A stretch of DNA of 40,758 nt from a virus (taxonomy: Duplodnaviria; Caudoviricetes): the IMG/VR virus record IMGVR_UViG_3300022863_000016, positions 1 to 40,758 of that record. One strand, given 5' to 3'. Below the pieces are notes generated by a model. That model ran no database searches and was not told the DNA's origin. It saw only the letters and a list, made by a program, of their open reading frames with translations. How positions within the stretch are numbered: the first letter of the stretch is position 1; each line of letters begins with the position of its first letter. Below are positions 7,217 to 23,856 of this stretch, piece by piece. A program made the position numbers and the translations under genes.

Positions 7217-8119
7217 ATGACAACTATCAGCGCCCGAGTCATTAAAGACTCTATTGGAGAAACAGCGCCCCGGCTCACAACACTTCTACTTCGTTATCCT
7301 CGGTGTATACATTCTGAGCTAATGACTCACAGAACGTTTTCTAGGAACGCCTCGAGTTCACGGGCAATCCCTGTTGAGAGACTTATCCAGGATATTCTGG
7401 ATGATCCCTTCGTACCTCTTCACTGGGGTAAGAATCAGAAAGGAATGCAAGCCCATGAGGAATGTAATGAAGAAGTATTCTTTGACGTTCCAGAATTAAA
7501 GGGAGCCTGTGGCTACAGTCGAGAAACAGCCTGGCTAGGCCACATGAAAGTAGCTGTGGAAACAGCTAGAGCTTTCTCCAATTCAGGCTACCATAAGCAG
7601 ATCGTCAACCGTCTGCTTGAACCCTGGTCACATATTAACGTGCTGGTGACTGCGACTCAGTGGTCCAATTTCCTCACTCTCCGTGACCACAAGGATGCCG
7701 AACCCCACATCCAGATTTTGGCTCGCGAAGTTCGCAAGGCTTTGAATGGGAGTGCCCCAGAGCATCTGGCTCCCAATAGTTGGCATCTTCCCTTCATCGA
7801 AGACGACGACATTATTGCCGTCATGAACCAGCATGGCAAACTCGTAGCTGATGGCGAAGACCTTAACTGGCCCTTGGCGCGTATCAGTGCTGCTCGATGC
7901 GCTCGCACGTCATATCTTACACATGACGGCAAAATACCGTCAATTGAAGAAGATATGGCTTTGTTTCACCGTCTTATGGGTGGAAATCCGATCCATGCTT
8001 CCCCCGTCGAGCACCAGGCCTGGCTTACCTCAGGCTTTTGTGTCAATCAAAAGCTTCATGGCAATTTTGCCCCGGGTTGGGCGCAGTTCAGGAAGACCTT
8101 TGAAGGCGAGTGCCAATAA
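7217..8119 (+). CDS. thyX: FAD-dependent thymidylate synthase (ThyX family)
   Basis: ELMTHRTFSRNASSSRAIP matches the (R/T)HRx7-8S signature; SAARCARTSY and HASPVEH motifs in permuted order. Confidence 0.85.
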   Translation: MTTISARVIKDSIGETAPRLTTLLLRYPRCIHSELMTHRTFSRNASSSRAIPVERLIQDILDDPFVPLHWGKNQKGMQAHEECNEEVFFDVPELKGACGYSRETAWLGHMKVAVETARAFSNSGYHKQIVNRLLEPWSHINVLVTATQWSNFLTLRDHKDAEPHIQILAREVRKALNGSAPEHLAPNSWHLPFIEDDDIIAVMNQHGKLVADGEDLNWPLARISAARCARTSYLTHDGKIPSIEEDMALFHRLMGGNPIHASPVEHQAWLTSGFCVNQKLHGNFAPGWAQFRKTFEGECQ

Positions 8120-8340: not shown

Positions 8341-8411
8341 GGCCTAAATAGCTATTTACAAAGTCCATAGCCGGTGCTAATATGGCCTAGTTTCACTGGA
8401 GACTAGGCCAT
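8341..8411 (+). promoter_or_regulatory. promoter plus RBS/ATG-sequestering hairpin of the homing endonuclease
   Basis: TTTACA(8355)-N17-TAATAT(8378); stem ATGGCCTAGTTTC-ACTG-GAGACTAGGCCAT covers GGAG and the start. Confidence 0.7.
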
Positions 8412-9066
8412 GTTACATTTTATAGAGCCTTTTACTGATATTGATCTTTATTGGATAGGCTATTTACAAGCAGACGGATCAATAACGCGCAATAGCAGTA
8501 GCATTCGGTTTGCGCAAAAGTACTATGAACCTGTTTATGAATTCGCACAATATTTTAAAGGTGTAACACACGTCCATCAATCGATTGCAGGAACCAAGCA
8601 TATTTGTCCAGGCTATGTAAGCTATCATGCTAGTGCACCATTTAATAAACAAGGTTCTCTTAACAACATTGGTTTAAAGAAAGAGCTTAGAGCCGATATT
8701 TATAAGTCAAAGCATTTTTGGAGAGGTATGGTAGATGGTGATGGTTGTATTTCATTATCCGGAAGTGTACCAGTCATCGGGTTATGCGGAAACCATAATG
8801 ACATGTCTATGTTTGCTAATTACGTCGAAAGCCTAGGTTTGTGTAAACCCAAGATAGGTATAGCTCGTTCTATATTTCAAGTACGGATAAGTGGAGAAGC
8901 GGCAGCTTATTTAAGCAAAGAGTTATACCTTGGAGAATATAGTGCCTTACCAGTAAAAGCAGAAAAAGCAAAAGTCTCAATGAAGCATAGAGCTAAAATA
9001 AGTTCTAAATCAAAGCTACCTGACAAATTAAAAGCAGAGTTTTATGACTCAGCACTTCTAGAATGA
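8410..9066 (+). CDS. free-standing double-motif LAGLIDADG homing endonuclease
   Basis: YWIGYLQADGS and FWRGMVDGDG motifs; AT-rich coding. Confidence 0.85.
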   Translation: MLHFIEPFTDIDLYWIGYLQADGSITRNSSSIRFAQKYYEPVYEFAQYFKGVTHVHQSIAGTKHICPGYVSYHASAPFNKQGSLNNIGLKKELRADIYKSKHFWRGMVDGDGCISLSGSVPVIGLCGNHNDMSMFANYVESLGLCKPKIGIARSIFQVRISGEAAAYLSKELYLGEYSALPVKAEKAKVSMKHRAKISSKSKLPDKLKAEFYDSALLE

Positions 9067-11538: not shown

Positions 11539-12237
11539 TTAGAGATTTTCGCTGTGATCTTCAACTTTGTTGCGTTTGCCAGGATAATAGAGCATCCGGT
11601 GATCGCCAATCATTGGAGCATAATAACAGAAAATTCTCCAAGGGTCTTGCTTGGTCTTCATAACACGATCGGCAACCAACTTAATAACAAGCCGCTGCAG
11701 ATCATCTTCAGCCATGACTGACTTGCCATTCCTTATTAAAGCTTCGATAATCTGTCGAGCTTGCTTGGGGAATTTACTCCAGATGGCTTTGCCTTCTTCT
11801 GAGGTCATGCGATCAATTCTGATCTTATACATGTCCTCGTTGCTATCAGATATTTGAGCTGATCCTCTACACTGGTCACCAACAATCTGGCAGATTTCCC
11901 AGAGTTCGTCGGCTAGTTCAGTCTTACTAAACTGATCCAGATTGTCTGGTGGGACAAGTATCTTGTCGCCGAGTTCAGCAGTTTTGTATCTCCAATAAGG
12001 ATCATCAAATTGTGCATAAATGTCATTAATGTACTTGGTTAACGTTTTGGGTGAGTGGCGATGAGCCATTTCACCAGCATTTGAATAAATTACCAAGGTC
12101 CGCGTGGACTTGGCATAGCGAAGCAAGGCCATATCCATCGAAGGAAACAGTCTTACATCAGAATAGTTCTTGTGGGCATTTGTAGGAAAAAAGGCAACAA
12201 CCCAAGAACCTTTGGGTCTTTCCTCATGGGCAAGCAT
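11539..12237 (-). CDS. hypothetical protein with putative C-terminal winged-helix-like domain
   Basis: 232 aa; AGAGCGGAGA leader; C-terminal part resembles 12545..12925. Confidence 0.7.
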   Translation of the reverse strand: MLAHEERPKGSWVVAFFPTNAHKNYSDVRLFPSMDMALLRYAKSTRTLVIYSNAGEMAHRHSPKTLTKYINDIYAQFDDPYWRYKTAELGDKILVPPDNLDQFSKTELADELWEICQIVGDQCRGSAQISDSNEDMYKIRIDRMTSEEGKAIWSKFPKQARQIIEALIRNGKSVMAEDDLQRLVIKLVADRVMKTKQDPWRIFCYYAPMIGDHRMLYYPGKRNKVEDHSENL

Positions 12238-12451: not shown

Positions 12452-12544
12452 CTATAAGTACGCTGAATGAATGACTGAAACAAACCCAAGACCAACTTGA
12501 CCGCAGAGACGGCAAGTTCAACCAGAGCAAAAAAGGAACACAAC

Positions 12545-12925
12545 ATGAGCAAGACCATTACCCTCGTCAAGGAACTCACTGAAGAAGTCAAGACCCCGCA
12601 AGTGCGCGCCATGCTTTCGATCCTCAGTGAAAAGGTCGGCTTGAGCAATGCGGTCGTTGCGAAAGACTTCTTCCCCGTTATCGAGGCCGATCCGAGCTTC
12701 GTTTCTCGCCAGGGCGCCGAGCGCGTCTGGAAGTTCTACGAGAAGGCGATGGTCGAAAACGGTTTCATCGAGATCGCCGGCATCGACGCGAAGCCCGAAA
12801 AAGCGGCCAAGGCTGCGACGACCGAAGACGCTCCCAAGGAAGAGCCCAAGCGCACTGCTTCCAAGCGCACGAAGGAAAACCACGAGACGGCCGGCGAGCA
12901 CGGACACGCTCACGAAACCAAGTAA
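12545..12925 (+). CDS. hypothetical, probably abundant DNA-binding protein with K/A/E-rich tail
   Basis: AAGGA RBS before ATG12545; strongly GC3-biased codons; own promoter and terminator. Confidence 0.8.
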   Translation: MSKTITLVKELTEEVKTPQVRAMLSILSEKVGLSNAVVAKDFFPVIEADPSFVSRQGAERVWKFYEKAMVENGFIEIAGIDAKPEKAAKAATTEDAPKEEPKRTASKRTKENHETAGEHGHAHETK

Positions 12926-12994: not shown

Positions 12995-13033
12995 AAAAAG
13001 GCCCTGAGTCTTTAATGACTTGGGGCCTTTTTT
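12995..13033. terminator. bidirectional intrinsic terminator
   Basis: AAAAAGGCCCTGAGTC...GACTTGGGGCCTTTTTT. Confidence 0.85.
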
Positions 13034-13721
13034 ATTCTCCATACAGAAATCGTTGTTGTTCATCGGTAAGTCTCGATAAAGTTCTTTTGGCTGTTTTCCA
13101 TTTTAGTATTTCCAAGGCACGTTTATGCTTTATAGGCAAGGCGCTATAAGCATCATTGCCGTAGAGTAGTTTTGTAAGATAAGCAGCAGGTTCCCCATTA
13201 AGACCCACTCTAAAGATTGATCTGGCAACTCCAACCTTTGGTCTTTTAAGTCCTGTGCTTTCTATCCAGTCAGCACATTTGACCATGTCATATTCATTGC
13301 CACACCACGCGATAGCTGGATAGGTTCGGCCTGAGTTCACTACAAAGTTTATGGAACCGTCACCGTCGAGTAGTCCGCGCCAGAAATCAAAGCTTAGGTA
13401 AATGTCGTCACGGAGTTTTGACTTGCACCCAAGAGCTTCTAGAGCGTAGTAAGGTTTGGACGACGAGAAGAGAAACATAGAGTGGTTTTCTTTAAAACCA
13501 GTATTTTTGTGAATGCGCTCTTTTACAGCACCTTGTCCCTCAACATAAGTGTGCAAGGCTATTACAGGCTCCTCGTGTATTTGGCCAAAGACCAAATACC
13601 CACCTTTCTTTCTATACAGCCCAGGGCTATATTCTTGACCAACCTTAGATACAAGTGAACCGTCAGCTTGTATATAGCCCAGCCAATAAAGATCAAAATT
13701 ATTCAATGGGTCGGCGAACAT
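13032..13721 (-). CDS. free-standing double-motif LAGLIDADG homing endonuclease
   Basis: YWLGYIQADGS and FWRGLLDGDG motifs; paralogue of 8410..9066. Confidence 0.85.
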   Translation of the reverse strand: MFADPLNNFDLYWLGYIQADGSLVSKVGQEYSPGLYRKKGGYLVFGQIHEEPVIALHTYVEGQGAVKERIHKNTGFKENHSMFLFSSSKPYYALEALGCKSKLRDDIYLSFDFWRGLLDGDGSINFVVNSGRTYPAIAWCGNEYDMVKCADWIESTGLKRPKVGVARSIFRVGLNGEPAAYLTKLLYGNDAYSALPIKHKRALEILKWKTAKRTLSRLTDEQQRFLYGE

Positions 13722-13747: not shown

Positions 13748-13791
13748 AATATAGTGCATCTATATACCCCTGTAAACAAAGGAATATGCCA
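13748..13791 (-). promoter_or_regulatory. promoter for the second LAGLIDADG gene
   Basis: Minus strand TGGCA-N10-TTTACA-N17-TATATT; GAGGAG RBS. Confidence 0.6.
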
Positions 13792-14753
13792 TGGCCAATG
13801 CTAGAGGAAAACACATTGATGGAACACACCTATCAGCCGATGCTGCAGAAGAAAGGGTCATCATCCATCGCGACCTAATCGCGCACGTATTTCGCTGGAC
13901 ACACGTGGCTAAGTATGTCGCCGCCAACATGCGTTACAAGAAAGCCAAGGTCCTCGATGCCGGATGCGGTGTTGATCTTCCGCTTGCTCGCATGATGTAC
14001 TCCAATCGTTTCATTGCATTGGACTACGCCGGCGTGGACTACAACAAGAGTGACAAATTCAAGCTGGACATGTTCAAGTCTGGCAAGTTCCCGATGAGTG
14101 CTTACGGAGGTGTAGATTTTGCCTCCAAGCAAGTTCTTGTTCGGTCTCCTGAGTTTGATAGCAAGGAAGATCATGTCGTCTATATCGATGGCGACAAGGA
14201 AGAAGGCGAACACGACCTTCCAAACATCATCACTTCATTCGAAGTCATTGAGCACGTCGAACCTTCACATGCTCGTGCAATGCTTCGTAAGATTGGCGTC
14301 ATCATGAGGCATGCCAAGGAAGCAGGCGAAACGCCTGTCGCCTTCATCTCGACGCCTTGCTATGATCAGCACACAGGCGCCGCCGACAATCACGTTAATG
14401 AAATGACCTACCTTGCTTTGGGCGGGTTGATCGAAGACCTCGGGTTCGAGATTGAGGCACATTATGGCACGTTCGCATCCATCAAAGACTACAAAGACAA
14501 AATGCTGGAAAGCAACCCCGAGGTTCGATGGCTTTGGGAGAAGCTGCGCGGTTACTATGACTCTAACGTCCTCGCAACTATCTTCGCTCCTGTGTTTCCT
14601 CAGCATGCTCGTAACGTTCTTTGGACGCTTCGGATTGCGCCTCAGTCTTACAGCCGTAAATTTGCCCCGCTGATCGAAGCACCGAAGCCTTGGTCAAGCT
14701 CAGAACTCTGGGAGCAGCTTGCTTCTGACGACCACTACAAGATGGAAGTGTGA
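13791..14753 (+). CDS. class I SAM-dependent methyltransferase (small-molecule type)
   Basis: VLDAGCG motif I, YAGVD motif II, SFEVIEHV motif IV, ISTP; no DPPY/NPPY or PCQ motif of DNA MTases. Confidence 0.85.
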   Translation: MANARGKHIDGTHLSADAAEERVIIHRDLIAHVFRWTHVAKYVAANMRYKKAKVLDAGCGVDLPLARMMYSNRFIALDYAGVDYNKSDKFKLDMFKSGKFPMSAYGGVDFASKQVLVRSPEFDSKEDHVVYIDGDKEEGEHDLPNIITSFEVIEHVEPSHARAMLRKIGVIMRHAKEAGETPVAFISTPCYDQHTGAADNHVNEMTYLALGGLIEDLGFEIEAHYGTFASIKDYKDKMLESNPEVRWLWEKLRGYYDSNVLATIFAPVFPQHARNVLWTLRIAPQSYSRKFAPLIEAPKPWSSSELWEQLASDDHYKMEV

Positions 14754-14813
14754 GAAGGTTATGTCTAGGAAAAAGGCATACTCGAGTCTATAACCAGAAA
14801 AGGAGTCGAACTC

Positions 14814-15296
14814 GTGGATAGCGAAAAGATACACATTAAAGCAGGCTTTGATCCTGTCCGTGACGTCGAAGAGTTCCACAAGAAATTTGGCTTGGAATAT
14901 GTAGGCAAACCACGCGGTCTGCCTCCTGAGTTTGCTCAGTTCAGGCAGAAGTTCATCCAAGAAGAACTGGACGAATATATCACCAATCACGTCAATCTCG
15001 AATTCGAGCTTGGTTTGAAAGAGCCTCAGAAGATTGACAAGTACCTCGAAGAGCAGCTCGATGCTCTTGTCGACCTTGTCTACGTCGCGCTTGGTAATGC
15101 TCATCTTCATGGTTTCGATTTCAGAGAAGCCTGGCGCCGCGTGCATGCCGCGAATATGGCGAAGGTAAGAGCTGAGAAAGCATCTGATAGCAAGCGCGGT
15201 TCAACTTTTGATGTCGTCAAACCTGCTGGCTGGACGGCGCCGTCGCATGCTGATCTTGTGGAGGACAATGTCTATGCCAATGGAAATAAAGCCTGA
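14814..15296 (+). CDS. MazG/PRA-PH-like nucleoside triphosphate pyrophosphohydrolase
   Basis: VEEFHKKF, FIQEELDEY, LDALVDLVYV, VHAANMAK, KPAGWTAP. Confidence 0.9.
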   Translation: MDSEKIHIKAGFDPVRDVEEFHKKFGLEYVGKPRGLPPEFAQFRQKFIQEELDEYITNHVNLEFELGLKEPQKIDKYLEEQLDALVDLVYVALGNAHLHGFDFREAWRRVHAANMAKVRAEKASDSKRGSTFDVVKPAGWTAPSHADLVEDNVYANGNKA

Positions 15297-15546
15297 GGTT
15301 TCAGAACTTGAGTGCAGGTGCTCAACTGATCCAAACCAAAAAGAAATGGTCAAAGCCATGAGTGGCGGACTTTTTGCTATTCTTGAATATAATCTGCGAA
15401 TGCATGATCTATGCGGTAAAGTTGGTCTAAAGATTTTGGCCAAGGCTACTGCTGAGATCATAAAAAGAACTGATACCAACGATCGACCGAAGTTGGAGGA
15501 ACACTTTAAAATGTTCCTTGATGCAGAATTTGCGGAGAAATCATGA
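15268..15546 (+). CDS. hypothetical protein
   Basis: GGAGGA RBS before ATG15268; overlaps both neighbours. Confidence 0.6.
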   Translation: MSMPMEIKPEVSELECRCSTDPNQKEMVKAMSGGLFAILEYNLRMHDLCGKVGLKILAKATAEIIKRTDTNDRPKLEEHFKMFLDAEFAEKS

Positions 15547-16511
15547 GCCAGCATCCTATCTTGGTACTTGACGGGCCTGACGGTTCAGGGAAAACGACGC
15601 TAGCTATGAAACTGTGCGCGTCGATGGGAGCTAAGTATATCCACCTGACGTTCAGGTGGAAAAATGCCATGTTCAACTACCACACAGCTGCCATAGAATT
15701 GGCGCTGAAATATGCTGAGAAACAGCCTGTGGTTATCGACCGCTGGTGGCCGTCAGAACTCATCTATGCAAATGTCTTTCGCCACGGCTCCAACATTAAG
15801 CATAGCGGAAGATTTCTTGACCGTGTGGCATTAAAGCATGGTCTGACATACGTGTTCTGTAACCCATCAAATGAGGCGAAGTACTTTAGTCGCTTCAAAG
15901 AACTTGAAGCTACCGGGCGCGAAATGTATACCTCTATGGAGGGCGTCTACCAAGGTTACCAAGAGCTCTACAAGAAACTGGGTTCGCGCCTTGATTGTGT
16001 GCATTACGACATAGACACAGACGGCAAAGACCTTGAAGGCTTTGTAGAATGGCTAGAGTCTTACTCCTACTCTGTTTGGGGCAAGGTTCCTCCTTTCTGG
16101 TCGGACAACAGCAATCGAATGGTGGCTGGCAGTAGCAACCATCCTGACATTCTTTTTGTTGGCGACGAGAGCCCAACAAAGACTCGACGCAAGGTGTGGC
16201 CATTCTTCGAATATGACCATAGTTCTCTGTGGTTCACTGAAGCTCTGGCCAGGCACAAAATCCCCGAATATAAGTTGGCTTGGGTCAATTCAGCTGAGAA
16301 AGGCATACCGAACTTTGCTATGGTTCGAAAGGCTATTCTCACTGCTAGGCCTAAGCATGTCGTCATGCTTGGTCACAAAGCAGCGGGCCGAGTTACAATT
16401 GACCGTAACTCACCTACTCAGTACCACTTCATGAAGCATCCGCAATGGTATAAGCGCTTCTCGCCGTCAGAGCAGGTGGACATCATTAACTTGAAGAGGC
16501 TCCTAGGATGA
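15543..16511 (+). CDS. dNMP (thymidylate-kinase-like) kinase fused to a UDG-superfamily-like domain
   Basis: LDGPDGSGKTT P-loop and IDRWWPSELIY; C-terminal ILFVGDESP..WPF..WVN..PKHVVMLGHKA..HPQW. Confidence 0.85.
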   Translation: MSQHPILVLDGPDGSGKTTLAMKLCASMGAKYIHLTFRWKNAMFNYHTAAIELALKYAEKQPVVIDRWWPSELIYANVFRHGSNIKHSGRFLDRVALKHGLTYVFCNPSNEAKYFSRFKELEATGREMYTSMEGVYQGYQELYKKLGSRLDCVHYDIDTDGKDLEGFVEWLESYSYSVWGKVPPFWSDNSNRMVAGSSNHPDILFVGDESPTKTRRKVWPFFEYDHSSLWFTEALARHKIPEYKLAWVNSAEKGIPNFAMVRKAILTARPKHVVMLGHKAAGRVTIDRNSPTQYHFMKHPQWYKRFSPSEQVDIINLKRLLG

Positions 16512-17311
16512 TAGGCACTTATGCGACTGCCAACGAAGCTTGGCTCGAGACAATTCGAGAAGTCAACATGTATGGCCATGAGGTAGCTCCTCGTGGCATG
16601 CCATGCAAGGAACTTCTTGCTTACAAATCAACATTAATGATGCGATACCCGATCGTGTCTATTCCGGCGCGCAAGCTGGGTTACAAGTTTCAAGCGGCTG
16701 AGGCTGCTTGGATTTTATCGGGAGACAATCGTGTTGAGACGATTGCTCCCTATAGCAAAGCAATTGCAAGGTTTTCTGACGACGGCATTAGGTACTTTGG
16801 AGCGTATGGTCCACGCGTTATTGACCAAATTGCTGGAGTGGCTAAGGCGATAGCCAATGATCCAGACACCAGACAGGCCGTCATGACTATCTGGCGGTCA
16901 AATCCACCCGCGACAAAGGATGTTCCCTGCACTGTCTCTATTCAATGGCTTGTAAGGGACGGAAAACTTCATTGCATTGACACAATGCGCTCTTCCGATA
17001 CATGGCTGGGATGGCCTTACGATGTCTTCAATTTCAGCATGCTTACCGGGTATCTGGCCTTGTATCTCCGTCGTGTTTACGGTGTTAGCTATGATCTCGG
17101 GTCTCTTAGCCTTGTGGCTGGGTCGCAGCATATCTACAAGACTAATGAAGCTGAAATTGCACTTGCACTACAATCGACTGAAAACCCAGTCGCTTATGAG
17201 CCATTTGACCCACTTACTTGGTTCGTAGAACCCGATGAGTTGACAGCCGCTTTGTGGCAAGCAGCCGAGGGCAAGGGCTCGCTGTATGCTATGTCAGGGA
17301 GAGAGCTATGA
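16508..17311 (+). CDS. thymidylate synthase homologue, predicted dCMP hydroxymethylase/methylase
   Basis: GAYGPR, TRQAV, DVPCT catalytic Cys, MRSSDTWLGWPYD with Asp at the E. coli ThyA Asn177 position, GSQHIY. Confidence 0.85.
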   Translation: MIGTYATANEAWLETIREVNMYGHEVAPRGMPCKELLAYKSTLMMRYPIVSIPARKLGYKFQAAEAAWILSGDNRVETIAPYSKAIARFSDDGIRYFGAYGPRVIDQIAGVAKAIANDPDTRQAVMTIWRSNPPATKDVPCTVSIQWLVRDGKLHCIDTMRSSDTWLGWPYDVFNFSMLTGYLALYLRRVYGVSYDLGSLSLVAGSQHIYKTNEAEIALALQSTENPVAYEPFDPLTWFVEPDELTAALWQAAEGKGSLYAMSGREL

Positions 17312-17790
17312 GACCATCAGCTGACGACTACTTCATTGACATGGCAAAGCTTGTTGCCACACGAGGAACATGCATCCGACGCAAGGTCGGATGTGTTCTC
17401 ATAAACAAGCGAAACCACATCACTGCAACAGGCTATAATGGAGTGGCGGCGGGCTTTACTCACTGCCTTGATCATCCATGCTCTGGAGCAGATCAACCAA
17501 GTGGTCGTGGCCTCGATATGTGCGAAGCTATCCATGCTGAGCAAAACGCTCTTCTTCAGTGTCGGGACGTTTACGAAATCCACACTCTCTATTCTACGAC
17601 GTCGCCTTGCATTCAGTGCATTAAGTTGTTGCTGAATACAAGTTGCCAAAGAATAGTCTTTGCCGAGGAATATCCTCACGGCATTTCAAAGCAACTGTGG
17701 CTGTCAGCCGGCAGGGAATGGGTACAGCATGGCGCCGAGATACAAGAAACCAATACTCAATCCGAACCAACTGCCATTATTCGTACCTGA
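17308..17790 (+). CDS. dCMP deaminase
   Basis: TCIRRKVGCV, TGYNG, HAEQNA, SPCIQC zinc motifs; ATGA overlap. Confidence 0.95.
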   Translation: MRPSADDYFIDMAKLVATRGTCIRRKVGCVLINKRNHITATGYNGVAAGFTHCLDHPCSGADQPSGRGLDMCEAIHAEQNALLQCRDVYEIHTLYSTTSPCIQCIKLLLNTSCQRIVFAEEYPHGISKQLWLSAGREWVQHGAEIQETNTQSEPTAIIRT

Positions 17791-19720
17791 GTCAAAGTGG
17801 AAAGCTCCCGAGTCTCTGCCATCACTATCGATGGCAGAGTTCATTGCAGTGGATACGGAAACCTATGACCCAAGACTTAATGAAGCAGGGCCGGGCTTTA
17901 TTCGAGGAGATGCTCGAGTCTGTGGTATCTCGATCGCCACAGACTGCGGGAAGAATTTCTACCTCCCAATTGGCCACCGAGAAGGAAACCTTGACAAACG
18001 AAAAGTTGTTGAGTACCTTAAAAAAGAACTTGGAAGACCTGGACAAGCTAAAGTCTTCGCAAATGCCATGTATGACCTTGAGGCACTCTGGTCATTGGGG
18101 ATTGACGTTCGAGGAACTATTCACGATATTCAGATTGCAGAACCCGTACTCGACGAGGACCGAGATGGCGGCTATTCTCTCGAAGCACTTTCCAAAACAT
18201 ACCTAGGCTATGGTAAGGATGAACAGCTTCTTAAGGAAGCTGAGATAGCCTATGGTGTTGAGCATAAGAAGGGCATGCATGAGTTGCCTGCCTGCCATGT
18301 GGGGCCTTATGCTGAGATCGATGCTGATAACACCTTGCAAGTGTTTCTCCTCCAACAGGAGGAGTTGCTTGCTGACGAAGTTATGGACATTTATCAGCTT
18401 GAAACGCAGTTGCTTCCTGTTTTGTTCAAAATGCGTCTTAATGGTGTTAGAGTTGATCTGGATAAAGCTGATATACTATCAAAGAAGATTGCGCTTGAAG
18501 AGACAGAGTTACAGAATTATCTCTTCAAGCTAGCTGGTTGCCAGTTCAGCACGAGTTCTTCAGCTGACATGGAAGACATCCTCATAGGGCGAGGGTTAAC
18601 AGTTCCAAGGACAGCAGCTGATGGTCCATCAGTTACCAATGAATGGCTTGAGAAGCACAGCAAAGATGACTTCTGCAAAGGTCTCGTTAAGTTACGTAAA
18701 ACAAAGAAGATGCGTTGTGACTTCATCGATGGGTTTATCATAGACCTTAACGTTAAAGGTCGTCTGCATACCCAGTGGCACCAGCTAAGGGATTATGATG
18801 ATGAAGCGGGTCGGTCAAAGGGAACTCGATCTGGTCGTATTGCCTCTTCAAAACCAAACCTCACTCAAATTCCAGCGCGCGACCCTTACTGGGGGCCTCT
18901 CATCAGGTCACTATTCATTGCCGACGAAGGTGGCTTTTGGACAAAGGCTGATTACTCTCAGCAAGAACCCCGTATTCTACTACACTTTGCCTATTTGATG
19001 AAACTCGCCGGGGCTGCTGAAGCCAGGCAAAGATATATTGATGATCCAGATACTGATTACCACCAGCTCGTAGCTGATCTGATCCACGAACGAGCTGGTC
19101 TGGACATTGGTCGTAAGAGAGCTAAAGGCATTAATCTTGGTTCGGCATATGGAATGGGCAAGCACAAGATGGCCGCCCAGCTGGGCGTCAGTCTTGAAGT
19201 AGCCGAGGAATTACTTAAAGCCTACCATGAAGGCGTGCCTTATGTTAAGCTCCTGGAGACTGCCTGTATCGATCGTGTTCATCAGCGTGGTTCCATTAAG
19301 ACTATTCTTGGCCGCAAGCGTAGGTTCAAGGAGTGGGAACCCACTGAATGGCATCGCAAGATGGGAACTCGCCCAGTTAAGTCAAAGGAAGAAGCTGAAC
19401 GCCTGTGGGGCAAAGGCCAGGTGTCGAGGGCGCATGCTCATAAGGCCTTGAACTCGCTTGTCCAAGGATCAGCCGCCGATCAGATCAAAAAAGCCTTGAT
19501 CATGATGGATGCTGAAGGCATTCCGCCTTCGATCCAAATCTATGACGAATTGAATGCCACCTACTTTGATCATAAGCAAGTTCGTCGCATGCAAGAAATC
19601 ATGGAGAACGCCATTCCAGAATTTACTGTGCCCTTTACTGCTGCTCCTGATATGGGTCGGTCGTGGGGCGAAGTCAAAGCCTACAAATGGACGGGAGCTG
19701 AATATGCTCTTGCTGCCTGA
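17729..19720 (+). CDS. polA: family A DNA polymerase with 3'-5' exonuclease
   Basis: DTET, NAMYD, YAEID exonuclease motifs; SGRIASSKPNLTQIP; ADYSQQEPR (A); RKRAKGINLGSAYGMG (B); QIYDEL (C). Confidence 0.95.
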   Translation: MAPRYKKPILNPNQLPLFVPESKWKAPESLPSLSMAEFIAVDTETYDPRLNEAGPGFIRGDARVCGISIATDCGKNFYLPIGHREGNLDKRKVVEYLKKELGRPGQAKVFANAMYDLEALWSLGIDVRGTIHDIQIAEPVLDEDRDGGYSLEALSKTYLGYGKDEQLLKEAEIAYGVEHKKGMHELPACHVGPYAEIDADNTLQVFLLQQEELLADEVMDIYQLETQLLPVLFKMRLNGVRVDLDKADILSKKIALEETELQNYLFKLAGCQFSTSSSADMEDILIGRGLTVPRTAADGPSVTNEWLEKHSKDDFCKGLVKLRKTKKMRCDFIDGFIIDLNVKGRLHTQWHQLRDYDDEAGRSKGTRSGRIASSKPNLTQIPARDPYWGPLIRSLFIADEGGFWTKADYSQQEPRILLHFAYLMKLAGAAEARQRYIDDPDTDYHQLVADLIHERAGLDIGRKRAKGINLGSAYGMGKHKMAAQLGVSLEVAEELLKAYHEGVPYVKLLETACIDRVHQRGSIKTILGRKRRFKEWEPTEWHRKMGTRPVKSKEEAERLWGKGQVSRAHAHKALNSLVQGSAADQIKKALIMMDAEGIPPSIQIYDELNATYFDHKQVRRMQEIMENAIPEFTVPFTAAPDMGRSWGEVKAYKWTGAEYALAA

Positions 19721-20174
19721 AACTGCTTCAGTAGACCTTAAGGCGAGGCTCATCATAGCTTCTGCCTATCTCTACTATCGCCGATTTTCACCTATATGGC
19801 CGGATGGTTACTATGATAGAATTTCCAGAGAAGTCGCCTTGGACTGGACTGCTTTATCGTCTTTTAGACGATGGCAACTTGGAAATCCCGATGAGCTTAG
19901 GGCGACTGGCCATCACATCAAAATTACTTGTGCCGCTGAGTTCGGAGCTATTGCCTGGCACAGAGACAGTACTGGCAATTTACCCACTGGCTACCCTATT
20001 AGAGACAATGAATGGGCTGAAGGAGCCTGTCGATGGGTCACCGCCGAACCTACTGGATTTGAGCTGAAAAAGCCAAGAGCTCCTGTAAAGCACCAAAGCA
20101 TCTTCAAGCCTGTCCAAACGGATATGTTTTCATTAATGGGGCTTGAGCCAGTTAAGAAAGGGAGACGAAAGTGA
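19704..20174 (+). CDS. protein resembling the N-terminal Ia domain of NAD-dependent DNA ligase
   Basis: AYLYY...PIWPDGYYDRI resembles YY..P.(I/V)SD..YD; GGGAG RBS. Confidence 0.55.
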   Translation: MLLLPETASVDLKARLIIASAYLYYRRFSPIWPDGYYDRISREVALDWTALSSFRRWQLGNPDELRATGHHIKITCAAEFGAIAWHRDSTGNLPTGYPIRDNEWAEGACRWVTAEPTGFELKKPRAPVKHQSIFKPVQTDMFSLMGLEPVKKGRRK

Positions 20175-20743
20175 ATAATTTGCTATACAAACTAACGTTT
20201 CCAAATGGTAAAATTTACTTAGGTATGACGTACAAAACAGCGGAAGAAAGATTTAAAGACCATACCTACTTTGCCATTACTAACAAATACGATTATATGC
20301 TTCACAGAGCTATTAGAAAATATGGTCCAGATTCAGTTAAGATAGAAACATTGGCTGTAGGTAGCAGAGAATATATAATGGAGCTCGAAGTAAGAGCAAT
20401 CGCTTTATTTAAAACACAAGATACCAACATAGGGTATAATATACACAAAGGCGGTCCTGGTACAGCTTTCTACGGACCACATACAGAAGAGGCAAAAGCC
20501 AAGATAGCTAAGGCAAGTACTGGAAGAAAACATACAAGCCAAGCTAAGCGTAAGATGACCACTCACCTGTTTGAGTATGCTGGAGAAATAAAATCAATAC
20601 GTGAACTTAGCGATAAATATGGAATACCGGCTGGTACTCTTAACAATAGAATACTTAAATATAAATGGTCCGTGGAAAGAGCTATTACTCAGCCTTGGAG
20701 TGGAAGGTCTATTATGCAACCCAATAAAAGACCTACTACATAA
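20171..20743 (+). CDS. GIY-YIG homing endonuclease
   Basis: LLYKLTFPNGKIYLGMT..ERF..H; LEVRAI; GYN; NUMOD-like HTEEAKAKI; C-terminal HTH. Confidence 0.85.
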   Translation: MNNLLYKLTFPNGKIYLGMTYKTAEERFKDHTYFAITNKYDYMLHRAIRKYGPDSVKIETLAVGSREYIMELEVRAIALFKTQDTNIGYNIHKGGPGTAFYGPHTEEAKAKIAKASTGRKHTSQAKRKMTTHLFEYAGEIKSIRELSDKYGIPAGTLNNRILKYKWSVERAITQPWSGRSIMQPNKRPTT

Positions 20744-23286: not shown

Positions 23287-23856
23287 ATGATAAACCATAC
23301 CTTGTATAAGATTGTGTTTCCAAATGGTAAGCTCTATATTGGTGCCACGTCTGCAAAATTAGAAAGACGTCTTAAGCAGCAGATTAGATTTGCCCTTGAC
23401 TATTTTCAAGACTATCCTGTACATAGAGCCATTAGAGAGTGTGGCGCAGAGTCGATTAAAATAGAACCCTTGGTAGTTGGCAACAAACAATATATTTCTG
23501 AGTTAGAAAATAAAGTTGTAGCTTTGTTTAAAACACAAGATAGAGAATTTGGTTATAATGTCGCCGATGGTGGCTATAACTACGCTATGTCAAACGAAGT
23601 AAGAAACAAAATATCTGAAACTTTGACAGGGACTAAACAAAGCAAAGAGCATAAAGAAAATGTAGCCAAGGCTCGTCAAAATAAAGAACATAAAGCAAAA
23701 GTGTCCATATCTCTCTCAAAGAGATTTATAGAATATAGGGGAATAACTAAGTCTCTGAGACAATGGTCTGAAGAACTTGGCATAAACTACTGGTGTCTAC
23801 ATCGTAGAATATACCGAAGTTCTTGGACGGTTGAAAAGGCCTTTACAACTAAGTAA
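23287..23856 (+). CDS. GIY-YIG homing endonuclease inside the tRNA cluster
   Basis: TLYKIVFPNGKLYIGAT; GYN; paralogue of 20171..20743. Confidence 0.85.
   Translation: MINHTLYKIVFPNGKLYIGATSAKLERRLKQQIRFALDYFQDYPVHRAIRECGAESIKIEPLVVGNKQYISELENKVVALFKTQDREFGYNVADGGYNYAMSNEVRNKISETLTGTKQSKEHKENVAKARQNKEHKAKVSISLSKRFIEYRGITKSLRQWSEELGINYWCLHRRIYRSSWTVEKAFTTK

Follow-up and report, generated by a model that had tools for sequence, protein, structure and literature searches.

The 40,758-base virus record IMGVR_UViG_3300022863_000016 (Duplodnaviria; Caudoviricetes), analysed over its whole length as the window, carries a run of seven genes that raises the question of which base this phage builds into its DNA in place of cytosine, and what the SAM methyltransferase at the head of the run might do to that base. 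In phage T4, the glucosyl-5-hydroxymethylcytosine (glucosyl-5hmC) pathway consists of the gp56 dCTPase, the gp42 dCMP hydroxymethylase, the gp1 kinase, and alpha- and beta-glucosyltransferases. The run in the window comprises, in the order given in the preliminary description and with all ORFs on the + strand and tightly spaced or overlapping, the methyltransferase (MT), a pyrophosphohydrolase, a small accessory ORF, a fusion of a dNMP kinase with a UDG domain, a TS homologue, a deaminase, and PolA. Judging from gene overlaps and purine-rich stretches upstream, the true starts of the accessory ORF, the deaminase and PolA are probably 15268, 17308 and 17729, respectively. The record is probably a fragment, because its nearest relative is complete at 63,909 bases. 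A second, independent peat sample yielded an 871-base contig that corresponds to positions 16703-17573 with zero differences and spans all three diagnostic codons of the TS gene.

The TS homologue (16508..17311, +; PF00303, E=6.6e-20) is a predicted dCMP 5-hydroxymethylase. Compared with E. coli ThyA, it has D138 (L143 in ThyA), C141 (C146), D164 (D169) and D172 (N177), and the Asp codon at 17021-17023 from which dCMP specificity was originally argued is GAT, encoding Asp172 in RSSDTWLGWPYD. A published and tested rule, as given in the accessible part of PMC13326640, associates N177D with dCMP, L143D/E with a non-methyl product, and D169N with a 5-hydroxy product. The catalytic Cys (C141) and the Asp at ThyA 177 (D172) are the residues expected for dCMP preference, the acidic D138 at position 143 is that expected for a non-methyl product, and the enzyme is predicted to make 5-hydroxymethyl-dCMP rather than 5-methyl- or 5-hydroxy-dCMP. 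The best PDB match is the CMP hydroxymethylase MilA (E=6e-28; E. coli ThyA, 2e-11). In a quick tree, the homologue falls within an 84-row clade (SH-aLRT 93) that includes TS proteins linked to T4-type glucosyltransferases (loci L096, L099, and L106) and to a carbamoyltransferase (L093). Glucosyltransferase and carbamoyltransferase caps both require a hydroxymethyl group.

Several of the neighbouring genes are of kinds that T4 also uses. The MazG/PRA-PH-type NTP pyrophosphohydrolase (14814..15296, +; PF01503, E=1.1e-12; phrog_671), a putative dCTPase and/or dUTPase, has counterparts near 53 of 58 distinct MTs, and NUDIX or dUTPase-fold genes take its slot in relatives. The fusion of a P-loop dNMP kinase (residues ~1-180) to a family-4-like UDG domain (~190-322; 15543..16511, +; phrog_761, E=2.6e-15), recognised in the preliminary description, is backed by its fold: Foldseek matches of the model (pLDDT 93.8) include YorR/thymidylate kinases and family-4 UDG/UdgX, among them the T. 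maritima and T. thermophilus UDGs, and the kinase domain has a PDB profile match to YorR (E=1.6e-13). The kinase is found near 53/58 and the UDG domain near 30/58 distinct MTs, and PolA (17729..19720, +; PF00476, E=2.7e-55; PF01612), a family A DNA polymerase with 3′-5′ exonuclease, near 47/58 MT loci. The dCMP/dCTP deaminase family protein (17308..17790, +; PF00383, E=2.8e-20) is 53% identical to the deaminase of Stenotrophomonas phage AXL3 and would supply dUMP to ThyX or host ThyA. The accessory ORF (15268..15546, +; ~92 aa) had no match in Pfam, PHROG or NCBIfam and has relatives at 2 distinct loci only; by these comparisons it does not appear to be a conserved part of the pathway. Outside the cassette, a flavin-dependent thymidylate synthase, ThyX (7217..8119, +; PF02511, E=9.9e-8; phrog_85, E=4e-81), which had been overlooked, offers a separate route to dTMP; ThyX is present in only 5/48 MT records.

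Judged from genes alone, the T4-type set of pyrophosphatase, hydroxymethylase, dNMP kinase and own polymerase is present, and with Asp172 of the TS homologue it supports the reading of the locus as a cytosine-replacement cassette. The cassette has in common with T4 the logic of replacing cytosine before replication, and the TS homologue and gp42 both carry D143/D169/D177. It differs in having a family A polymerase, a UDG domain joined to the kinase, a TS of another lineage, and, in the capping slot, a SAM methyltransferase with no glucosyltransferase. The preliminary description knew of no characterised phage pathway with this architecture. That holds for the MT step, which is the sole new element within the cassette, but not for the core of TS-Asp, deaminase, PRA-PH and PolA, already described, in the accessible portions of bioRxiv 2024.12.05.627091 and PMC8670742, as a marker of C-modified phages.

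The MT (13791..14753, +; 320 aa; PF13489, E=5.6e-9) is a Hen1/UbiG-like class I enzyme with the SAM motif DAGCG (D56, G58, G60). The EHV motif reported earlier is present, and the predicted metal ligands E151, E154, H155 and H201 are invariant in 61/61 rows and in 27/27 rows of a distant subfamily. The model (pLDDT 92.4) is a class I Rossmann fold. The best 11 PDB profile matches are all HEN1/Hen1 or UbiG O-methyltransferases (E 7e-13 to 3e-9), the bacterial Hen1 profile alignment spans ExxEH and the downstream His, and by sequence alignment and invariance the MT has the E-x-x-E-H and distal His ligands that characterise HEN1/Hen1, whose Mg2+ is bound by E796/E799/H800/H860 in HEN1 (PMC10781085, accessible part). 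A window-centred MT profile matched HEN1/UbiG weakly (E 0.03-0.04), and ExxEH-type motifs are frequent in small-molecule MTases (PMC1397878). In VIA-align comparisons of the model, HEN1 (Z 15.3, rmsd 2.8, 185 aligned) ranks 8th, below ChlM, a carboxyl O-methyltransferase (Z 17.5, rmsd 2.7, 191 aligned), as well as 4htf (Z 17.3, rmsd 4.5, 212 aligned), and many N-methyltransferases follow closely; Foldseek matches are generic (E ~1e-7). The structure search with the predicted model does not pick out Hen1 as nearest.

An MT of O-methyltransferase type is supported. The hallmarks of C5, N4 or N6 DNA base methyltransferases are lacking: Pfam and NCBIfam gave only PF13489 and a weak UbiG match, the motifs PC and (D/N/S)PP(Y/F/W/H) are absent from the invariant columns, and no DNA base methyltransferase is among the fold matches listed. 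Of the earlier label, a small-molecule methyltransferase lacking DNA-methyltransferase motifs, the second half stands; a small-molecule substrate is not implied, because the nearest solved relatives, the Hen1 enzymes, act on RNA. The MT has in common with HEN1/Hen1 and UbiG the ExxEH...STP...H-x-x-E motif with its four metal-ligand positions, but differs from them in a structural identity of at most 18%, in its virus-specific distribution (307 clusters at 50% identity, E up to 1e-30), in being a single-domain protein with no dsRNA-binding or other RNA-binding domains and no Pnkp partner among its conserved neighbours, and in adjoining dCMP hydroxymethylase-type genes.

Phylogeny and gene neighbourhoods tie the MT tightly to the TS in related phages. 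A TS lies within 7.5 kb of the MT in 57/58 distinct cases, and the remaining locus ends 1.1 kb downstream of the MT. With residues given in the order ThyA 143/169/177 (D/D/D being Asp at all three), the 77 MT-linked TS rows comprise 74 D/D/D, one N/D/D, and two extra canonical ThyA copies. Among AXL3-type and MAG loci, which are not dereplicated, 76/86 MT loci have a TS, always D/D/D (76/76); each of the 10 remaining loci breaks off within 1.6 kb. In the distant MT subfamily a D/D/D TS is found at 42/44 distinct loci; one exception has its TS ~14 kb off, of an hmU-synthase-like sequence type yet with Asp at 177. The partners of the MT come from several distinct lineages of the TS, among them relatives that are sister to T4 gp42 (L124, L142), and these pairings occur at three points of the MT tree; the MT therefore tracks a chemistry rather than a single gene lineage. 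No MT with an Asn-type hmU synthase was seen across three MT subfamilies, and one MT locus (L330) additionally holds an hmU-type hypermodifier domain.

Glucosyl- and carbamoyltransferases cap the hmC hydroxyl in other phages. Some TS relatives without the MT carry one of these caps instead, and in Xp15 a carbamoyltransferase occupies the MT's slot. PF09198 (T4-type glucosyltransferase, the one glycosyltransferase family searched in whole records) and PF02543 (carbamoyltransferase) were each found in 0/48 MT records, 17 of the 45 viral ones being <90% complete, with both controls positive in each search; the MT was found in 0/7 glucosyltransferase or carbamoyltransferase records (0/2 for carbamoyltransferase records taken alone). 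The window, probably an incomplete genome, is as first described in having no glycosyltransferase among 29 ORFs scanned with Pfam, and glucosyltransferase, carbamoyltransferase and DHFR seeds run against all its ORFs of at least 60 aa also returned no glycosyltransferase. The 5-carbamoyloxymethylcytosine pathway, in the accessible part of Yang et al. 2021 (PMC8670742), places a carbamoyltransferase alongside TS, PRA-PH and dCMP deaminase, a layout seen in Xp15 and in L093, whose TS belongs to the same clade as that of this record. The cassette differs in that its capping enzyme is a methyltransferase, a word absent from the main text of that paper.

At a probability of roughly 0.55, the cassette swaps cytosine for 5hmC and the MT O-methylates the hydroxyl, giving 5-methoxymethyl-2′-deoxycytidine. 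In this pathway the MazG-type enzyme would clear dCTP from the pool, the TS homologue, as its three diagnostic residues predict, would turn dCMP into 5hm-dCMP, and the kinase would phosphorylate this product for incorporation by PolA, as in T4. dTMP would come from the deaminase acting together with either ThyX or the ThyA of the host, and the UDG domain may clear uracil-type errors. By analogy with Hen1, the MT with SAM and a metal held at E151/E154/H155/H201 would activate the CH2OH oxygen, on either the nucleotide or DNA, and so fill the capping role held elsewhere by glucosyl- and carbamoyltransferases; the purpose is probably resistance to host restriction enzymes. 5-Methoxymethyl-C as a DNA base was not found in the literature searched. 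The broader proposition, that a widespread, virus-specific Hen1-like family puts 5-methoxymethylcytosine in place of C and includes the first 5hmC O-methylating enzyme, stands at about even odds.

A less probable outcome is a SAM-derived 5hmC derivative other than the O-methyl ether, such as N4-methyl-5hmC, which has the same mass, or a base carrying another SAM-transferred group. The MT was seen only with Asp177-type (cytosine) partners and never with an Asn-type hmU synthase, which a cytosine-specific target such as N4 fits equally well; N4 adjoins the CH2OH, so a metal could bind both, and in the MT fold search CmoA and N-methyltransferases come out with similar scores. Set against this, the best 11 profile matches are hydroxyl O-methyltransferases, the (D/N/S)PP(Y/F/W/H) motif of known DNA N4-cytosine methylases is absent, and the glucosyl- and carbamoyltransferases that also accompany hmC, and replace the MT, act on hydroxyls.

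Somewhat more doubtful is that the base is plain 5hmC, with the MT engaged in Hen1-like 2′-O-methylation of RNA ends, removal of a nucleotide by-product, or the like. The nearest solved relatives work on RNA 3′ ends, and the Hen1 metal binds a ribose diol that deoxynucleotides lack (PMC10781085, accessible part). The TS can do without the MT, which is missing from 24/62 TS-anchored loci, and uncapped hmC appears viable because many such relatives have no recognised capping enzyme. However, an RNA-end enzyme has no cause to follow hmC synthases through several TS replacements, such a role does not account for the MT missing from glucosyl- and carbamoyltransferase phages, and neither a Pnkp nor an RNA-ligase family is conserved in MT neighbourhoods.

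It is improbable that the TS makes 5-methyl-dCMP, as in Xp12, or 5-hydroxy-dCMP, leaving 5mC or 5-methoxy-C as the base. Demonstrated 5mdCMP producers do occur among like cassettes (5/7 tested), and the Xp12 system, with its 5mC-selective deaminase, has TS-Asp, deaminase, PRA-PH and PolA in common with the cassette (bioRxiv 2024.12.05.627091, accessible part); yet position 143 is Asp here, whereas Xp12 has Asn and ThyA has Leu, Xp12 lacks an MT of this family, and the DHFR that adjoins the Xp12 TS gene was found in 0/48 MT records and in no window ORF of at least 60 aa. As for hydroxylation, an activity known in the TS family, RB69/DLP3 likewise use a TS homologue to install a hydroxyl at C5 as the attachment point for a cap, giving arabinosyl-5-hydroxycytosine, but that pathway requires D169N (PMC13326640, accessible part), whereas Asp is retained in this TS (Asp164) and in all MT-linked TS rows, and the RB69 gp48 row shows Asn. 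The Xp12 and RB69 enzymes are both distant in the tree, RB69 on a long branch of unsure placement. Of the two bases named in the preliminary description, 5-methoxymethyl-C is thus the leading candidate and 5-methoxy-C, which needs a 5-hydroxy-dCMP synthase, is now unlikely.

Cultured relatives offer a view of the cassette in other genomes. Stenotrophomonas phage AXL3 (gp27-31) has the same five-gene order of MT, PPase, kinase/UDG, TS and deaminase, and Pseudoxanthomonas phage PW916 (ORF58-63) has the MT, PPase, TS and deaminase; their TS is ~50% and their MT 30% identical to those of this record, and both are siphoviruses whose genome layout differs from it. AXL3 DNA was cut by 2/37 enzymes, both with A/T-only sites (PMC7504290, accessible part), a pattern equally expected from plain 5hmC or another C/G modification. 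An ordinary thymidylate-supply operon in canonical DNA, which database gene names suggest and the AXL3 and PW916 papers adopt (PMC7504290 and PMC9414467, accessible parts), is very improbable given Asp at ThyA 177, a separate ThyX here and in AXL3, a further, Asn-type ThyA in both of the nearest relatives, and the resistance of AXL3 DNA to 35/37 enzymes.

If true, 5-methoxymethylcytosine would represent a third 5hmC cap in phage DNA, after sugars and carbamoyl groups, and would account for the restriction resistance of AXL3, a cultured therapy candidate. A SAM-using 5hmC alkylator could label or protect 5hmC in epigenome sequencing, beside T4 beta-glucosyltransferase. For the phages themselves, a small ether cap might evade both sequence-specific restriction enzymes and the type IV nucleases that read 5hmC and glucosyl-5hmC, and such capping would occur in a large family of phages from metagenomes of peat and numerous other sources.

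The record is a virus contig of 40,758 bases that carries baseplate and tape-measure genes, and nearly the whole of it is contained in peat metagenomes, a habitat statement that leaves out sequencing runs with small shares. In the RNA sequencing run X4, 18 of 30 bins are covered, as contigs only, which is no demonstration of transcription. The closely packed gene run of the preliminary description was recovered as seven + strand ORFs at 13791-19720, in the order methyltransferase (MT; PF13489; 13791-14753), PRA-PH/MazG pyrophosphatase, a small ORF assigned to no family, kinase, thymidylate-synthase homologue (TS; 16508-17311), dCMP-deaminase-family protein and PolA. The kinase had been read as a fusion with uracil-DNA glycosylase (UDG), and its C-terminal half is indeed modelled with a UDG fold. 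The Asp codon of the TS lies at 17021-17023, where it had been placed, and the segment 16703-17573 is repeated without any difference in an independent sample. The reported lack of a glycosyltransferase in the window was borne out, and neither a carbamoyltransferase nor a DHFR gene was found there. The record is probably a fragment of a larger genome, as judged from its closest relative (MT 67% identical), a complete genome of 63,909 bases that is likewise without glycosyltransferase, carbamoyltransferase and DHFR.

Four homing-endonuclease genes are present in the window (13032-13721, 8410-9066, 20171-20743 and 23287-23856), two LAGLIDADG-like and two matching GIY-YIG/HNH PHROGs; a related strain in run X5 is without the one directly upstream of the MT. 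Two paralogues at 11539-12237 and 12497-12925 belong to an unnamed, possibly DNA-binding domain family of about 100 amino acids (motif KT[KR]Q..RI..YY) that precedes the cassette, frequently as multiple copies, in 34 of 58 MT loci. This family was rejected as part of the pathway because it is missing from AXL3 and from MT loci of the gp42 type, as was the accessory ORF at 15268-15546, which occurs in 2 distinct loci.

The core of the cassette is already known, as MetaGPA work describes C-modified contigs in which TS, PRA-PH, deaminase and PolA adjoin one another. Five of seven tested TS genes from such cassettes yield 5mdCMP (bioRxiv 2024.12.05.627091), and the product is therefore not fixed by the cassette alone. 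PMC13326640 reports tests of three markers, numbered as in E. coli ThyA: N177D for dCMP selection, an acidic residue 143 that accompanies a non-methyl product, and D169N for 5-hydroxy-dCMP synthases. The window's TS has D138, D164 and D172 at positions 143, 169 and 177 (hereafter D/D/D), and under this rule its product is therefore predicted to be 5-hydroxymethyl-dCMP. Among solved structures, the CMP hydroxymethylase MilA matches it best (E 6e-28; ThyA, 2e-11). A quick maximum-likelihood tree with 108 TS rows (thinned by similarity from 205 ORFs; SH-aLRT only, no bootstrap) places the window's TS in an 84-row clade, some members of which adjoin T4-type glucosyltransferases or a carbamoyltransferase. 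The presence of a second synthase, here ThyX (7217-8119, outside the cassette), was rejected as a general argument, as ThyX occurs in only 5 of 48 MT records; it is valid only for the window's genome, the cultured phage AXL3 and the closest relatives.

The MT family is large and viral, counting 1,167 proteins with E no higher than 0.001 and 307 clusters at 50% identity (E up to 1e-30). Its Atlas neighbours are 95-100% viral by their features, and only 7 loci, all MAG records, were found among 185,579 prokaryotic genomes. The TS phylogeny and neighbourhood co-occurrence suggested in the preliminary description link the MT to a D/D/D TS in three sets and across several TS lineages, including sisters of T4 gp42, with partner swaps mapping to three places in the MT tree. 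In the first set, a TS lies within 7.5 kb of 57 of 58 distinct MTs, and 74 of 77 MT-linked TS rows are D/D/D, the others being one N/D/D and two additional canonical ThyA genes. In the set of AXL3-type and MAG loci a TS, always D/D/D, is present in 76 of 86, and the remaining 10 end within 1.6 kb. A distant MT subfamily has a D/D/D TS in 42 of 44 distinct loci; one exception lies on a fragment that is 17% complete, and in the other the TS is distant and of hmU-synthase-like sequence type, with Asp at 177. That TS gene, resembling SPO1/PaMx11 (locus L383:1303-2514, complete genome G071), has Asp replacing Asn and may represent a change of substrate from dUMP to dCMP.

With the TS as anchor the association is looser, and 38 of 62 such loci contain the MT. 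Two of the 24 loci without it have an MT across the record's ends; five carry a T4-type glucosyltransferase, one a carbamoyltransferase and one a TET-associated glycosyltransferase-like gene, two are of the hmU type, and the remainder are truncated or show no visible capping enzyme. Conversely, PF09198, the sole glycosyltransferase family searched, and the carbamoyltransferase family PF02543 were each found in 0 of 48 MT records, many of them partial, and the MT in 0 of 7 glucosyltransferase or carbamoyltransferase records. Five T7-like Pelagibacter phage loci (L004, which is HTVC200P, L070, L071, L074 and L092) have only the kinase and a D/D/D TS belonging to the same clade. No capping enzyme was seen in them, and they are candidate uncapped 5hmC genomes.

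The MT is modelled as a class I Rossmann fold (pLDDT 92.4). Fold searches gave generic matches, with ChlM and 4htf placed above HEN1, and sequence profiles are sharper on the type of enzyme: when 27 distant members were aligned to form the profile for a PDB search, the top 11 matches are HEN1, bacterial Hen1, HENMT1 and UbiG (E 7e-13 to 3e-9). The bacterial Hen1 alignment spans the E-x-x-E-H motif and the downstream His, and E151, E154, H155 and H201 are invariant. The four equivalent residues of HEN1 hold Mg2+, which binds substrate hydroxyls (PMC10781085). The metal-ligand motif is not specific to Hen1 (PMC1397878), so that these matches support O-methylation but fall short of proving it. 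The median pI of 241 family proteins is 6.0. A route by an oxygenase to 5-carboxy-C followed by ester methylation, prompted by fold matches to carboxyl-methyltransferases, was rejected because the conserved neighbours of the MT include no enzyme family of that kind.

Replacement of C by 5hmC is well supported for the cassette. Set beside the observed gene content, residues, folds, linkage and exclusivity, the pathway would begin with removal of dCTP by the pyrophosphatase and synthesis of 5hm-dCMP by the TS, as predicted under the rule of PMC13326640; the modified nucleotide would then be phosphorylated and incorporated, and O-methylation by the MT would yield 5-methoxymethyl-C. We assign this final base a probability of roughly 0.55, so that one of the two options named in the preliminary description is favoured. 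Transfer of another SAM-derived group to hmC, for instance N4-methylation, is a less likely outcome, and plain hmC with an MT active elsewhere is slightly less probable still. That the base is 5mC or 5-methoxy-C seems improbable: DHFR adjoins the TS in Xp12 but is found in 0 of 48 MT records, and the Xp12 5mC synthase is placed away from the window's TS clade; 5-methoxy-C, the other option of the preliminary description, is disfavoured because the TS keeps Asp (D164) where D169N marks 5-hydroxy-dCMP synthases (PMC13326640). Canonical DNA is very improbable. Palindrome avoidance proved uninformative: A/T-only and C/G-containing 4-mers show no difference in the window (O/E 0.94 vs 0.94) or in the MT loci (1.04 vs 1.02), in a comparison that had no unmodified control.

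Fusions point both ways as to whether the MT would act on nucleotide or DNA, before or after replication. In P0264 it carries a C-terminal PRA-PH domain; at locus L367:7356-8804 it follows an N-terminal P-loop kinase-like domain, recognised from the motif alone, and UDG is encoded separately upstream; and at L298:5771-7780 it is fused to a C5-cytosine DNA methylase-like gene. Such methylase-like genes adjoin the MT in loci L298, L075/L165, L098, L291, L292, L294, L295 and L301, in cassettes of genomes predicted to be without C. Other neighbours include a SAM-synthetase N-terminal domain gene (PF00438, E 2e-10) between MT and TS at L340:9323-10138, a placement that would agree with a large need for SAM, and a 5-hmdU DNA kinase helical-domain gene (PF18723) between MT and an Asp-type TS at L330:9651-10901, where two hypermodifiers are possibly combined. 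At L101, L103, L104, L333, L041 and L323, Asp-type TS genes have small neighbours that encode DUF6378 and DUF1599 ('nucleotide modification associated domain 1').

Two cultured phages, Stenotrophomonas phage AXL3 and Pseudoxanthomonas phage PW916, carry the MT system. AXL3 DNA resisted all but 2 of 37 enzymes, the two being A/T-only, and the paper on that phage (PMC7504290) does not name the modification. The 5mYOX preprint names O-methyltransferases near T-dioxygenases as candidate hypermodifiers, there untested. Among the papers listed by literature searches, whose scope excluded most subscription journals and all supplements, none deals with this MT or with phage DNA that contains methoxymethylcytosine; the MT-TS linkage may be named in a 2013 NAR survey by Iyer of predicted systems for base modification, also outside that scope. 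In its working the cassette resembles the T4 and carbamoyl-5hmC pathways, yet it belongs to neither, because its capping enzyme differs, and the tightly linked MT probably makes a base not previously described.
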